A stretch of DNA of 57,427 nucleotides, from the IMG/VR virus record IMGVR_UViG_2778261297_000008, one strand, 5' to 3'. The notes beneath the pieces were generated by a model. The model made no database searches and was not told the DNA's origin. It saw nothing but the letters and a program-made list of their open reading frames with translations. Positions 42,374-49,618 of this stretch are shown here, in pieces. The stretch comes from a virus. Taxonomy: Duplodnaviria; Heunggongvirae; Uroviricota; Caudoviricetes. Numbering within the stretch: position 1 is the stretch's first letter; every line of letters begins with the position of its first letter. The translations under genes and the position numbers were made by a program.

Positions 42374-42501
42374 TCGTTTTGTGATATGCCGCAGAAACGT
42401 TGTATGAAATAACGTTCTGCGGTTAGTTAGTATATTGTAAAGCTGAGTATTGGTTTATTTGGCGGTTATTATCTTCAGGAGAATAATGGAAGTTCTATGA
42501 C

Positions 42502-42711
42502 TCAATTGTTCATAGTGTTTACATCACCGCCAATTGCTTTTAAGACTGAACGCATGAAATATGGTTTTCCGTCATGTTTTGAGTCTGCTGTTGATATTTC
42601 TAAAGTCGGTTTTTTTTCTTCGTTTTCTCTAACTATTTTCCATGAAATACATTTTTGATTATTATTTGAATCAATTCCAATTACCTGAAGTCTTTCATCT
42701 ATAATTGGCAT
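42502..42711 (-). CDS. Small hypothetical ORF (69 aa) downstream of the 304-aa gene
   Basis: ORF only; AT-rich; may be a fragment. Confidence 0.3.
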   Translation of the reverse strand: MPIIDERLQVIGIDSNNNQKCISWKIVRENEEKKPTLEISTADSKHDGKPYFMRSVLKAIGGDVNTMNN

Positions 42712-42846
42712 TGTATGTATTGGTTTATTGGAGTTGATGCTTGCTTTTCTGAGCCATAGCTCTGATATCCAAATGAAGCCATAGGCATTTGTTATTTTGG
42801 CTCTGTCAGCTGCATAACGCCAAAAAATATATTTATCTGCTTGATC

Positions 42847-43761
42847 TTAAAATGTTGTATTGATTAAATCAATTGGATGGAATTGTTTATCATAAAAAAT
42901 TAATGTTTGAATGTGATAACCGTCCTTTAAAAAAGTCGTTTCTGCAAGCTTGGCTGTATAGTCAACTAACTCTTCTGTCGAAGTGATATTTTTAGGCTTA
43001 TCTACCAGTTTTAGACGCTCTTTAATATCTTCAGGAATTATTTTATTATCATATTGTATCATGCTAAATGACAATTTGCTTATGGAGTAATCTTTTAATT
43101 TTAAATAAGTTATTCTCCTGGCTTCATCAAATAAAGAGTCGAATGATGTTGGCGAAATCACATCGTCACCCATTGGATTGTTTATTTGTATGCCAAGAGA
43201 GTTACAGCAGTTATACATTCTGCCATAGATTATAGCTAAGGCATGTAATAATTCGTAATCTTTTAGCGTATTAGCGACCCATCGTCTTTCTGATTTAATA
43301 ATAGATGATTCAGTTAAATATGAAGGTAATTTCTTTTGTGCAAGTCTGACTAACTTTTTTATACCAATGTTTAACATACTTTCATTTGTAATAAACTCAA
43401 TGTCATTTTCTTCAATGTAAGATGAAATAAGAGTAGCCTTTGCCTCGCTATACATTTCTAAATCGCCTTGTTTTTCTATCGTATTGCGAGAATTTTTAGC
43501 CCAAGCCATTAATGGATCATTTTTCCATTTTTCAATAACATTATTGTTATACCAAATGTCATATCCTATAATCTGGTTTTTGTTTTTTTGAATAATAAAT
43601 GTTACTGTTCTTGCGGTTTGGAGGAATTGATTCAAATTCAAGCGGAATAATTCAGGGTCAAAATATGTATCAATGCAGCATTTGAGCAAGTGCGATAAAT
43701 CTTTAAGTCTTCTTTCCCATGGTTTTTTAGTCATAAAACTCTCCATTTTGATAGGTTGCAT
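42847..43761 (-). CDS. Uncharacterised ~295-304 aa protein in the post-tfa cargo arm (likely start ATG 43734)
   Basis: Long ORF on the opposite strand in visibly AT-rich DNA; SD GGAGAG precedes ATG 43734; no assignable domain. Confidence 0.7.
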   Translation of the reverse strand: MQPIKMESFMTKKPWERRLKDLSHLLKCCIDTYFDPELFRLNLNQFLQTARTVTFIIQKNKNQIIGYDIWYNNNVIEKWKNDPLMAWAKNSRNTIEKQGDLEMYSEAKATLISSYIEENDIEFITNESMLNIGIKKLVRLAQKKLPSYLTESSIIKSERRWVANTLKDYELLHALAIIYGRMYNCCNSLGIQINNPMGDDVISPTSFDSLFDEARRITYLKLKDYSISKLSFSMIQYDNKIIPEDIKERLKLVDKPKNITSTEELVDYTAKLAETTFLKDGYHIQTLIFYDKQFHPIDLINTTF

Positions 43762-43977
43762 GCTAGATGCTGATATATTTTAGAGGTGATAAAATTAACT
43801 GCTTAACTGTCAATGTAATACAAGTTGTTTGATCTTTGCAATGATTCTTATCAGAAACCATATAGTAAATTAGTTACACAGGAAATTTTTAATATTATTA
43901 TTATCATTCATTATGTATTAAAATTAGAGTTATGGCTTGGCTCTGCTAACATGTTGCTCATAGGAGATATGGTAGAG

Positions 43978-46790: not shown

Positions 46791-46796
46791 CATGAC

Positions 46797-47717
46797 TTAC
46801 TGCAAACCATAGTATTTCAGTGCAGCCTCCGTCAGAACTTTGGTTGCAACTGCCATCCCGACTTTCCAAGTCCCATCGGCAGCTTTTCTTATATTTGATG
46901 CAATCCAATTTTTTGCACCTTCCCCAAAAGGTTCTTCAGAACTTGATGGTGTTTCAGACGCTACAATCAGTGAGAAATCACGCGCATCTTCTTCAGAAAT
47001 ACCTGAATCTTTCAGATAGTTTGCTACCGATTCTTTATTGTGTGATTGTATGCTTACATTAATAGTTGATTCGCTGCCACCAGAGATGGCATTGCCAACG
47101 TTACCATAAATTATTTGTTGTGTTATTTGCTGTGCTTTTGATGCATTATCTTTATCCATACCTTGAGTACCAAAAGTGATGTGTGCTGCTGCGGGAATTG
47201 ATTTTTCAAATTCAATTGTTAATTCAAGAACTCTATTGCGAACGGCTTGTGAAATTTCTGATAGTGACACTACTGAAATATTTCCAGAGATATCATTACA
47301 AGCATAATCTGCATATATCTTCCCTTGTAGAAGAAGGATTAAATTTGACGCATTAATCCCCAAAGAACCACCTTTTGCGCTAACTTTAACAAGTTCGTCA
47401 ACAGCAGCAATGCTCTCTCTGACGGAGTAGTTATTCCAGCTATCATTTGCAAACGTTTTTATTAATATTGGTGGGATAGGCGCATTTTTTATACCAGAGC
47501 CAAAAGGGCCAGAAAACGTGCCTTTATAAGTTACTCCTACTATTCTGTAATCGGGAAGCACAGCATCCTGAGGATAGCCTTCCGATTCATGTTTGACCCA
47601 TTCTTCTAAATCGTTACTTCCTAATCTTGCTGCCAAGAGTCGGAGTTTGAGCAGTATTGGACCCAAGCTTGATCCATCTTGAACCACAGACTCTTGAATC
47701 TGATATAGCAGGGACAT
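46797..47717 (-). CDS. AbiTii-like N-terminal domain protein (putative abortive-infection protein), 306 aa
   Basis: N-terminus LGPILLKLRLLAARLGSNDLEEWVKHESEGYPQDAVLPDYR matches my recollection of the AbiTii N-terminal helical motif; SD GGAG. Confidence 0.7.
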   Translation of the reverse strand: MSLLYQIQESVVQDGSSLGPILLKLRLLAARLGSNDLEEWVKHESEGYPQDAVLPDYRIVGVTYKGTFSGPFGSGIKNAPIPPILIKTFANDSWNNYSVRESIAAVDELVKVSAKGGSLGINASNLILLLQGKIYADYACNDISGNISVVSLSEISQAVRNRVLELTIEFEKSIPAAAHITFGTQGMDKDNASKAQQITQQIIYGNVGNAISGGSESTINVSIQSHNKESVANYLKDSGISEEDARDFSLIVASETPSSSEEPFGEGAKNWIASNIRKAADGTWKVGMAVATKVLTEAALKYYGLQ

Positions 47718-47759
47718 TGACCATCTCCGTATTAAAACCTATTTTGCCAGTTTAAATGT

Positions 47760-49400
47760 ATAAGCAATCGACATAAAGTACTATGCCTAGTAAAACATCA
47801 GCCTGAAACGGTTAACCGGACAACACCATTCCCACACTATCCCGAGGATGTTATGTCCGCTTCACGCCCTGAGACATTCGACAAGCTTTTTATGGCTTCA
47901 GTAAGGGCGAGTGTCTCGCTTCGAGAGCCAGCAAATATTTCGCTTCGTCATAACAGGTTCTGGCCTTCCAGCAGCGGTAAATGATCCTTATCCATTTGAA
48001 CGCCAGTGCCCGGATCGCAGACTGATGAGATTTGCCCTTTTCTCTAAGGCCCTGATAATACAGTTTGGCCCAGTATGATGAATTAACCGTCTTGGCAGCC
48101 CATTCAACAAAGGTCTGCCTGACGAACTTGGCACATTGCCATCGCCAGTGAACCCAGGATTTTTGGCCGCTTCGTTCGGTCACCGGTGCTATACCTGCGT
48201 AGTTTTGAATTTCTTCAGCGCTGTTAAACCGGTCACGGTTATCACCAAGTGCAGCAAGCATCCGTGGGCCCATGCACGGTCCCATGCCCGGAAGTGATTT
48301 GAACAGCCCCGCATCTGGCAATGTGTCAAACAGCGTTTCGATTCGTTCGTCATAGGTTTTGATGATTTCACTCACGACTTTAATTTGTGTCGCCAGTGCT
48401 GCTGCCATCAAAGCATTAGCCTCTATAACACTCGGGTCTGTAGTCAATGGGATCGCATTATCAATACTCGCAACACGTTGCTCGGTAAGGGCCATAGCGC
48501 GACCACCTTTGGCATTCAGAAAGTTGCGGATCGTGTCGCGTCTGGCTCGTTTCAGTTGTTGCAGACTGGGCCACCGGATAATCAGCTCACACAACAGTAA
48601 GCTACCCCGATGTGAGAACCACTCCAGTGGCTGAGGATAATACTGTTTAAGCGTATTGATTATCCGGTTCACAAAGCGTCGTTTATCTTCAACCAACTGA
48701 CGACGTTGCTCAACCAGTTGCTGAAGTAAGCGAATATCCGCATTGTCGGGTTCAATAGCTTTTATCTTCTGGGGGTAACGCAGCATTAACTCTAATGCCA
48801 GCTCGGCATCCTGCGGATCATCTTTAGCGCCGCTGGGCGAGAAGGCTTGCCGATAACGAGCCAGGGACAATGCGTGGACGGGGAAAACGGTGATAAAGGG
48901 GTATTTTTGAAGAGCATATACCACGGGGCCCTTCTTCAGTTCGAGAGCTATTGCGATTCTACCTTTTACTTTCTGGTGTAACTCAGTAAGCCAGGCATCA
49001 AGCGCTTCTGCTGTATGTTCAATCACATCGAATACGCGTTCACCGTTTTTAAACTGAACACAGACATCGTGTTTTTTATCAGCCCAGTCCAGACCAACGT
49101 GCGCAGCAAATTGATTAGTCACAGTCATCACCAACTCCTTTTTATCGGGGATTGGTATGCATTCCACGCTCTTCGAAAGAAATATAGCCAGCAGTTTATC
49201 TGCATGCCCTGAGTATTCGTTAGCGAACGTGGAGCACCTACTGGCTCGAAAGAAAAGCGGCGATCATCACATGATTCTCGCTCAATATTCGTAACCAGTA
49301 AGCGCATACCCTGAATCACTTCAAAGTGTAATTCTCAGGGTACGAATGACTATACTTCGCTCATAACAGACATTAACTACAGTTATGGTAGAAGGTATGC
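47760..49400. mobile_element. IS110-family insertion sequence (boundaries approximate)
   Basis: Contains an IS110-type transposase gene with non-coding flanks; this family lacks classical terminal inverted repeats, so ends were not determined. Confidence 0.5.
47890..49128 (-). CDS. IS110-family transposase/recombinase (DEDD N-terminal domain + Transposase_20-like C-terminal domain)
   Basis: 412 aa from ATG 49128 (SD AAGGAG); N-terminal AAHVGLDWADKKHDV, C-terminal LPGMGPCMGPRMLAALGDNRDRFNSAEEIQNYAGIAPVTERSGQ. Confidence 0.9.
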   Translation of the reverse strand: MTVTNQFAAHVGLDWADKKHDVCVQFKNGERVFDVIEHTAEALDAWLTELHQKVKGRIAIALELKKGPVVYALQKYPFITVFPVHALSLARYRQAFSPSGAKDDPQDAELALELMLRYPQKIKAIEPDNADIRLLQQLVEQRRQLVEDKRRFVNRIINTLKQYYPQPLEWFSHRGSLLLCELIIRWPSLQQLKRARRDTIRNFLNAKGGRAMALTEQRVASIDNAIPLTTDPSVIEANALMAAALATQIKVVSEIIKTYDERIETLFDTLPDAGLFKSLPGMGPCMGPRMLAALGDNRDRFNSAEEIQNYAGIAPVTERSGQKSWVHWRWQCAKFVRQTFVEWAAKTVNSSYWAKLYYQGLREKGKSHQSAIRALAFKWIRIIYRCWKARTCYDEAKYLLALEARHSPLLKP

Positions 49401-49618
49401 ATGCTGGGTGGGGAAAGTATGAAGGAAAAGAAGACTGCTGCGCCGTTTGTCGTCACATTTATCTTCATTGGCTATGCAAGTCATAATACAAGGTGGGACA
49501 AAACTGAGACACATAAGGCCTCACAATGGCTTGCAAGGCTTTACATGTTTTGATGTGGTGGGACGTGTGAGCGCAGTGTTGATGGGGTAATACTTTGAAT
49601 TAGAAGCGGATTCTTATA

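Follow-up and report, generated by a model that had tools for sequence, protein, structure and literature searches.

In a lambda-like prophage, the arm that runs from the last tail gene to the right attachment site may hold genes of the phage proper, cassettes exchanged between relatives, or genes defending the lysogen. The prophage considered here occupies thrW of Escherichia coli and lies within a stretch of 57,427 nucleotides (IMG/VR virus record IMGVR_UViG_2778261297_000008), called the window. An earlier note described the interval 42374-49618 as an AT-rich accessory arm of opposite-strand genes at a known hotspot for anti-phage cargo, and suggested modular cassette exchange. The arm, 7.2 kb long, is a mosaic of six parts: the lambda ea47 block, a dinI pseudogene, an XRE-ImmA-orf49 operon, a DUF6650/AbiTii block, the insertion sequence (IS) ISEsa2 and the att arm. 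Each module has an independent distribution, the cargo varies between related arms, and AbiTii has no conserved partner. The arm is probably the lambda b-region equivalent of this thrW prophage, dispensable and rebuilt by recombination with prophages and plasmids at short shared sequences. It is an ordinary but clear case of a known type of prophage cargo hotspot. A defence role is plausible for AbiTii, judged from its family membership.

The boundaries of the arm are exact. The tail fibre assembly gene tfa (41789..42373, plus strand; Pfam Caudo_TAP 2.1e-42, RefSeq annotation) is the last tail gene and forms the left anchor. The attR core (49619..49665, plus strand) is an exact 47-bp copy of thrW 1399-1445 and repeats the 3′ part of the tRNA-Thr(CGT) gene located at 1369-1444. 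Two copies of this repeat occur in the window and none in shuffled sequences. The left prophage end comprises proA, thrW and a tyrosine integrase gene, int, which adjoins thrW. With a tRNA 3′-end repeat at both ends and the arm between tfa and attR, the element is a tRNA-integrated lambdoid prophage. The span given in the earlier note coincides with the tfa-to-attR interval to the base. The last 264 bp (49355..49618) are phage att-arm sequence, which is kept in relatives with other cargo.

The left block of the arm (42374..44077) originates from the lambda b region. These first 1,704 bases match phage lambda 22558-24261 at 99.1% identity, and the remaining 5.5 kb show no match to lambda. The b region of lambda (ea47-ea31-ea59) has the same position, between tfa and attP. 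Here, in contrast, other cassettes replace ea31 and ea59, ea47 contains a nonsense codon, and the attachment site is thrW and not attB-lambda. The ea47 orthologue (42502..43734, minus strand, 410 aa; phrog_19262 2.3e-293) is broken by an in-frame TAA at 42847-42849 (E296*). A change from C to A at position 42849 turns GAA into TAA and cuts the protein at residue 295, and the window contains no full-length Ea47 open reading frame (ORF) of about 410 aa. E. coli EC09 (NZ_CM169492.1) matches the arm end to end, with three differences in 25 kb (41844, 42192, 42849). The former two lie in tfa, the third creates the stop codon. With so few differences, the window stems from a strain very closely related to EC09 or represents a different assembly of that lineage. 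EC09 keeps GAA and an intact 410-aa gene, and the loss is therefore very recent. The ORF of 304 aa (42847-43761), listed in the earlier note as an unknown protein of about 300 aa, and an ORF of 69 aa are the two halves of ea47, because the nonsense codon splits the gene. Nearly all of the 438 Ea47 homologues are about 405-425 aa long (typically ~410 aa), with few fragments. Searches of full-length Ea47 with PADLOC and Pfam gave no match. The function of Ea47 is unknown (PMC3224144), and ea47, ea31 and ea59 are non-essential in lambda (PMC10695390). All three relatives that were inspected and have an Ea47-type arm retain the gene. It stems from the b region of lambda itself and belongs to the conserved part of the arm, not to the variable cargo.

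The other modules differ between relatives. Related arms of E. coli strains were compared between the same tfa and att anchors. The arm of PS1Phumofeces1 comprises Ea47, an 83-aa protein, an FlxA-like protein and a β-flower protein. NT1F10 carries Ea47 and a lipase, and FG31-1 carries Ea47, a GIY-YIG protein and a lipase. In E4, the arm consists of a GIY-YIG protein, a cytosine methyltransferase with a type II restriction enzyme, DUF6650 and AbiTii. The IPCEC31 arm harbors a dinI pseudogene, XRE, ImmA, orf49, a 156-aa ORF, IS3 and a 341-aa protein. Beyond the XRE cassette, its cargo has no homology to the cargo described here. The 341-aa protein is PD-T7-1-like (PADLOC 2.3e-68; L003 10252-11277). 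Its gene sits at the att-proximal end of the arm, right before the integrase of a tandem P4-like satellite.

The modules are also unequally frequent. Among 5,426 complete E. coli genomes, ea47 occurs in 121, the XRE cassette in 13, the DUF6650/AbiTii block in 11 (two of them on plasmids) and a full ISEsa2 copy in 28; the whole combination is present in a single genome. Differing cargo between a constant tfa and a constant att arm, together with these unequal prevalences, supports modular cassette exchange. The comparison proposed in the earlier note confirmed that cargo varies at this position, with two qualifications: ea47 is kept in the three inspected Ea47-type relatives, and the IS is secondary. 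Anti-phage cargo is found in related arms, as the type II restriction-modification genes and the PD-T7-1-like gene; in the present arm, PADLOC recognizes AbiTii alone. Hotspots of P2 and P4 encode immunity in phages and satellites (Rousset et al., 2022, as cited in PMC11364771). They share with this arm a fixed site, conserved phage flanks and variable AT-rich cargo, including defence genes in relatives. The present case differs in its lambda-like host phage, in the b region as hotspot, and in having a single gene of a recognized defence family, assigned by homology.

The arm is AT-rich, as noted earlier. The GC content of the arm is 0.404 (0.383 without the IS), compared with 0.545 in the structural genes (20001-42373). 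About 32% of the arm is non-coding. The minus strand encodes ea47, AbiTii, the IS transposase and the dinI pseudogene, which take up 47% of the arm; another 21% is occupied by XRE, ImmA, orf49 and DUF6650, whose plus-strand orientation is that of the tail genes. The description as opposite-strand cargo thus applies to one half of the genes and fails for the other. In lambda, the minus-strand genes of the b region belong to the early lytic class: they are transcribed from pL across attP once the prophage has excised, and the lysogen does not express them. Opposite-strand orientation by itself is therefore no sign of lysogen-expressed cargo. LexA boxes (CTGT-N8-ACAG) are absent from the arm. Scans of the arm for promoters and terminators yielded counts not above those of shuffled sequences, and an Rfam scan had no match above the gathering score within it. 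Just outside, the 3′ end of tfa (42132-42330, coding strand) matches the Rfam family IS009 (RF02111) with 226.9 bits at a gathering score of 117.

A dinI-like pseudogene (~44080..44213, minus strand) follows the lambda block. It is a frameshifted C-terminal fragment, identified by a RefSeq note and by tblastn with E. coli DinI (65% over 17 residues, 2e-5). A 100-nt direct repeat brackets this fragment together with the XRE-ImmA-orf49 operon. Copy 1 (43978..44077) is separated from the 3′ end of the pseudogene by 2 bp and contains the hairpin CCGCAG..CTGCGG; copy 2 (45750..45849) is 92% identical to it. In prophages at the prfC site, the XRE cassette lies between a dinI fragment and an intact dinI gene, and the 3′ flank of the intact gene is the second repeat copy. 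This arrangement indicates that the XRE cassette entered a dinI gene and that the repeat arose by duplication of the dinI 3′ flank. The 100-nt element is present in 3,421 of the 5,426 genomes (63%), in up to seven copies. It also marks the end of the lambda homology and therefore acts like a shared recombination linker. The repeat structure mentioned in the earlier note corresponds to this element, and module boundaries fall at the repeated linker. The element is at times annotated as 'capsid protein'. Its hairpin weakly resembles CssrB, an sRNA of Shigella, in the 3′ stem-loop of the latter (23 bits, below the Rfam threshold).

The operon inside the repeats starts with an XRE-family helix-turn-helix (HTH) protein of 119 aa (44416..44775, plus strand; HTH_31 9.1e-11; PADLOC capH 3.6e-10). 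An ImmA/IrrE-type M78 metallopeptidase of 173 aa with a HELGH motif follows (44784..45305, plus strand; Peptidase_M78 1.4e-9; capP 6e-11). The peptidase domain covers residues 72-170, and no C-terminal domain extends beyond it. The last gene, orf49 (45463..45612, plus strand; phrog_33859 1.5e-26), encodes a small basic protein and is annotated in EC09. A terminator-like hairpin with a T run, found by pattern scan, closes the operon (45625..45644, plus strand). Upstream of XRE, a putative promoter (TTGATT-17-TAACTT) and the 22-bp palindrome AGACCTGAAGTACTGAAGGTCT were recognized by eye (44338..44393, plus strand); a promoter consensus scan did not flag the former. The palindrome at 44372-44393 is a candidate operator of the operon. 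In one of the 13 carrier genomes the neighbour of the cassette is DUF6650/AbiTii; otherwise it is dinI, the 156-aa ORF or an integrase gene. A diverged XRE-ImmA cassette occurs between att and int of another prophage. Adjacent co-directional genes for an HTH protein and a HExxH M78 peptidase are shared with ImmR/ImmA of ICEBs1 and phi105 as well as with the CBASS-associated pair CapH/CapP. In size (ImmA has about 170 aa) and layout the pair is ImmR/ImmA-like, with a match at the level of architecture only. A separate CI-like repressor is encoded elsewhere in the prophage.

The DUF6650/AbiTii block (45917..47861, 1.95 kb) moves as a unit on chromosomes and IncFII plasmids, as seen from genome matches. 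On an IncFII plasmid it adjoins genes for a UvrD helicase and an AAA ATPase, a Gabija-like pairing. The two genes of the block are convergent and separated by 102 bp. A GC-rich hairpin, GGCCGCAAAATGCGGCC, was found between them by pattern scan (46774..46790) and is likely their shared terminator.

The DUF6650 gene (46219..46695, plus strand) encodes the 158-aa protein listed earlier as unknown. The protein scored 25.6 bits against PF20355, just below the gathering score of 27. PF20355 is also among the precomputed Pfam hits of the database, and the identical RefSeq protein is named DUF6650 family protein. Type VI Thoeris consists of a TIR protein and a DUF6650 protein, ThsG, with 2′cADPR as signal, and is detected by the rule that ThsG stands beside ThsB (bioRxiv 10.64898/2025.12.03.692087, a preprint of December 2025). 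The 158-aa protein carries the domain of the ThsG effector and is 64.5% identical to a Vibrio ruber protein whose gene has a TIR gene next to it. In contrast to that system, neither the arm nor the window contains a TIR gene, and the next gene is the convergent AbiTii. The Pfam scan of the arm ORFs gave no TIR match, and tblastn of the window with the V. ruber TIR protein gave only E values above 2. The protein is not listed in the type VI Thoeris supplementary tables consulted. Membership in type VI Thoeris was rejected for want of a TIR partner, and the gene is best read as an orphan ThsG-like gene.

Most of the close DUF6650 homologues inspected (57-93% identical) have a co-directional gene 115-145 bp downstream, which differs between lineages (six loci: L010 4001-5406, L019 4001-5274, L068 5304-6582, L011 437-1832, L069 3001-4219 and L071 3001-4100). 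In V. ruber its product is a TIR protein. Serratia and E. coli VTB97584v, whose DUF6650 protein is 93% identical, have a gene for an HNH nuclease at this place, and the genes of Shewanella, Aeromonas and V. fluvialis code for unrelated unknown proteins. Two exceptions were observed. A distance of ~590 bp precedes the next gene in Aeromonas dhakensis, and a P2-like prophage of Providencia has its next gene on the opposite strand. In the present arm and in the Enterobacterales copies of the block, AbiTii is the neighbour, oppositely oriented. This recurrent pattern suggests partner swapping around the ThsG-like gene. It is doubtful that DUF6650 is free of TIR signalling altogether, either as one half of a two-gene module with interchangeable partners or as an orphan effector that would answer 2′cADPR in trans.

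The AbiTii-family protein (46797..47717, minus strand, 306 aa) consists of an AbiTii domain (residues 2-184) that a low-confidence linker joins to a conserved helical domain at the C-terminus. The AbiTii domain was identified with Pfam (PF18864, 5.2e-44, 151.2 bits at a gathering score of 27.6) and PADLOC (3.4e-36). To our knowledge, this widespread single-gene protein has neither a solved structure nor a described mechanism. A total of 1,259 homologues was found, and those aligned are conserved over their full length. Full-length conservation holds to about 44% identity in distant phyla. No neighbour family is common to more than two of 36 full-length loci from different species. DUF6650 is adjacent in one of 42 species loci, an Erwinia copy of the same block, and was rejected as the partner of AbiTii. 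One homologue belongs to a defence island of Cobetia; another, in a prophage of Morganella, lies between the tail fibre gene and umuDC/int. From these scattered loci without shared neighbours, AbiTii appears to be a stand-alone mobile gene of the defence-island type.

Two described forms of AbiTii proteins were compared. According to Bouchard et al. (2002), as cited in PMC13064643, AbiT of Lactococcus lactis needs two co-transcribed genes, abiTi and abiTii. The N-terminal AbiTii domain is common to both systems. Unlike the lactococcal protein, the 306-aa protein has a different conserved C-terminal helical domain, which also occurs alone as phrog_16090. Its downstream gene is convergent and an IS lies upstream, leaving no co-transcribed AbiTi-like partner at the locus (the lactococcal AbiTi sequence itself was not compared). 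Fusions of AbiTii with HEPN domains have been described (PMC3710099). The C-terminal HEPN domain of the c2405/Ymh type has a conserved His (Rx4-6H or H only). Residues 185-306 contain no invariant His or Arg among the aligned homologues, and the 306-aa protein is not the HEPN-fused form.

ISEsa2 (47862..49354, minus strand, 1,493 bp) belongs to the IS110 family. Its transposase (47890-49128) matches the DEDD transposase family PF01548 (4.6e-32), the Transposase_20 family PF02371 (5.2e-19) and NF033542 (182.6 bits), and 100% identical copies of 1,493 bp exist elsewhere. The element lies upstream of AbiTii, 144 bp from its start codon, and its insertion produced no target duplication. Its junctions are GTCCGCT on one side and CTTCGC on the other, compared with the empty site GTCCGCTCTTCGC in strain E4. 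ISEsa2 is a secondary insertion and not cargo. The gene list of the earlier note was correct for XRE, ImmA, the small ORF, AbiTii and the IS110 element; besides the two proteins renamed above, the dinI pseudogene had been missed.

The probable history of the arm is one of recombination at the tfa end together with the lambda b-left block, at the dinI-like 3′ flank and at the att arm, which brought in five separate pieces. The lambda ea47 block would have been acquired in this way, and its ea47 is now a pseudogene. The XRE-ImmA-orf49 operon, self-contained, would have been gained separately. Its arrival probably split a dinI-like gene, leaving a C-terminal fragment and a duplicated 100-nt 3′ flank. 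The block of DUF6650 and a stand-alone AbiTii would have entered in convergent arrangement with one terminator hairpin for both, followed by the recent insertion of ISEsa2 upstream of AbiTii. In the lysogen, AbiTii may be made and may act as a single-gene abortive-infection or exclusion factor. XRE is predicted to repress its own operon at the palindrome 44372-44393. ImmA may cleave XRE after DNA damage and release orf49 in the manner of an ImmR/ImmA switch. As an orphan effector, DUF6650 would not function as a Thoeris system here.

Several results weigh against a functional, defensive arm. PADLOC recognized AbiTii as the sole defence protein of the arm, structure searches gave no mechanistic clue for it, and the AbiTi-like partner is missing although the lactococcal prototype is a two-gene system. 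Promoter and operator are pattern matches, with no promoter excess over shuffled sequences. The defence role is assigned by homology, and any activity or expression of the arm genes is a prediction. The arm may be largely inert, given the nonsense codon in ea47, the dinI pseudogene, the DUF6650 gene lacking TIR and the IS located only 144 bp away from AbiTii. The extreme form of this argument regards the arm as mostly genetic debris of past recombination and IS activity, unselected and functionless for host or phage. The premature stop in ea47, the frameshifted dinI fragment, the missing TIR partner, the IS near AbiTii and the non-coding third of the arm agree with it. The intact state of XRE, ImmA, orf49, DUF6650 and AbiTii, whose copies in unrelated genomes and plasmids are 99.6-100% identical, does not; nor does the conservation of the AbiTii family over its full length in distant phyla, or the very recent loss of ea47, still intact in EC09. 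Debris is an unlikely description of the arm as a whole. About equally unlikely is that ea47 and AbiTii serve the phage as early genes of lytic growth, with transcription from pL across attP only once the prophage has excised, and give the lysogen no protection. The block is lambda's own b region, and the minus-strand genes point in the same direction as int at the other prophage end. After circularisation, such genes would lie downstream of int, as in lambda transcription. This reading leaves unaccounted the AbiTii homologues in non-phage defence islands and on plasmids, which lack pL read-through. The AbiTii gene moreover has its own terminator hairpin, an IS now separates it from attR, and pL cannot serve the plus-strand genes.

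Two further explanations treat neighbouring modules as one system, and both are slightly less probable than the former two. XRE and ImmA could form a DNA-damage switch of the CapH/CapP type over DUF6650 and AbiTii, or over ea47, in a single regulated defence island. The PADLOC matches to capH and capP fit, the adjacent HTH and HExxH M78 peptidase genes are present, and such pairs control many defence operons (bioRxiv 10.1101/2022.04.27.489752). In that study, CapP carries a C-terminal GAF domain, and the CapH/CapP genes precede the operon that they regulate, with the opposite orientation. The peptidase of 173 aa differs from CapP and IrrE in having no GAF domain, and the pair is not positioned divergently upstream of a defence operon. 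Its divergent neighbour is the dinI pseudogene, neighbours vary across genomes, a terminator-like site follows orf49, and the 49-aa ORF is the only obvious output. The cassette adjoins DUF6650/AbiTii in just one of 13 carrier genomes, which also weighs against the proposal. An equally slim chance is given to DUF6650 and AbiTii as a true two-gene defence system, in which AbiTii would serve as sensor in place of the TIR protein of type VI Thoeris. The pair travels as a block of 1.95 kb on chromosomes, on plasmids and in Erwinia, the 90%-identity clusters of both proteins are similar in size (146 and 140 members), and the inspected close DUF6650 homologues mostly have a variable gene directly downstream. 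Against this, the genes are convergent, AbiTii has DUF6650 beside it in only one of 42 species loci, and an AbiTii neighbour is lacking in all seven DUF6650 homologues that were inspected outside the block, including one of 93% identity.

Further islands are present in the window. Two more AT-rich islands are found within the prophage (13000-15000 and 18000-20000, GC 0.36-0.43). One, between Q and the lysis genes, holds opposite-strand genes for a DUF6731 protein and a hypothetical protein; lysis genes and terminase flank the other. The two probably represent further moron sites. Right after attR (50129-53613), an IetA/IetS defence pair is encoded (PADLOC IetA 5.5e-77, IetS 2.9e-34), followed by a HigA-like gene, remnants of TraJ, TrbJ and TrbL, IS1 and then betA. 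As it directly follows attR, the IetA/IetS island constitutes a second, older island in thrW, in tandem with the prophage.

The arm leaves the current picture of prophage defence hotspots unchanged. The locus offers cheap test cases in a single-gene AbiTii, a ThsG-like protein without TIR and a compact XRE-ImmA-orf49 switch. It provides a clean and dated case of lambda b-region rebuilding, in which at least six cargo sets are found in E. coli between one and the same pair of anchors, tfa and att, and the 100-nt dinI-flank sequence marks the junctions of the cargo.

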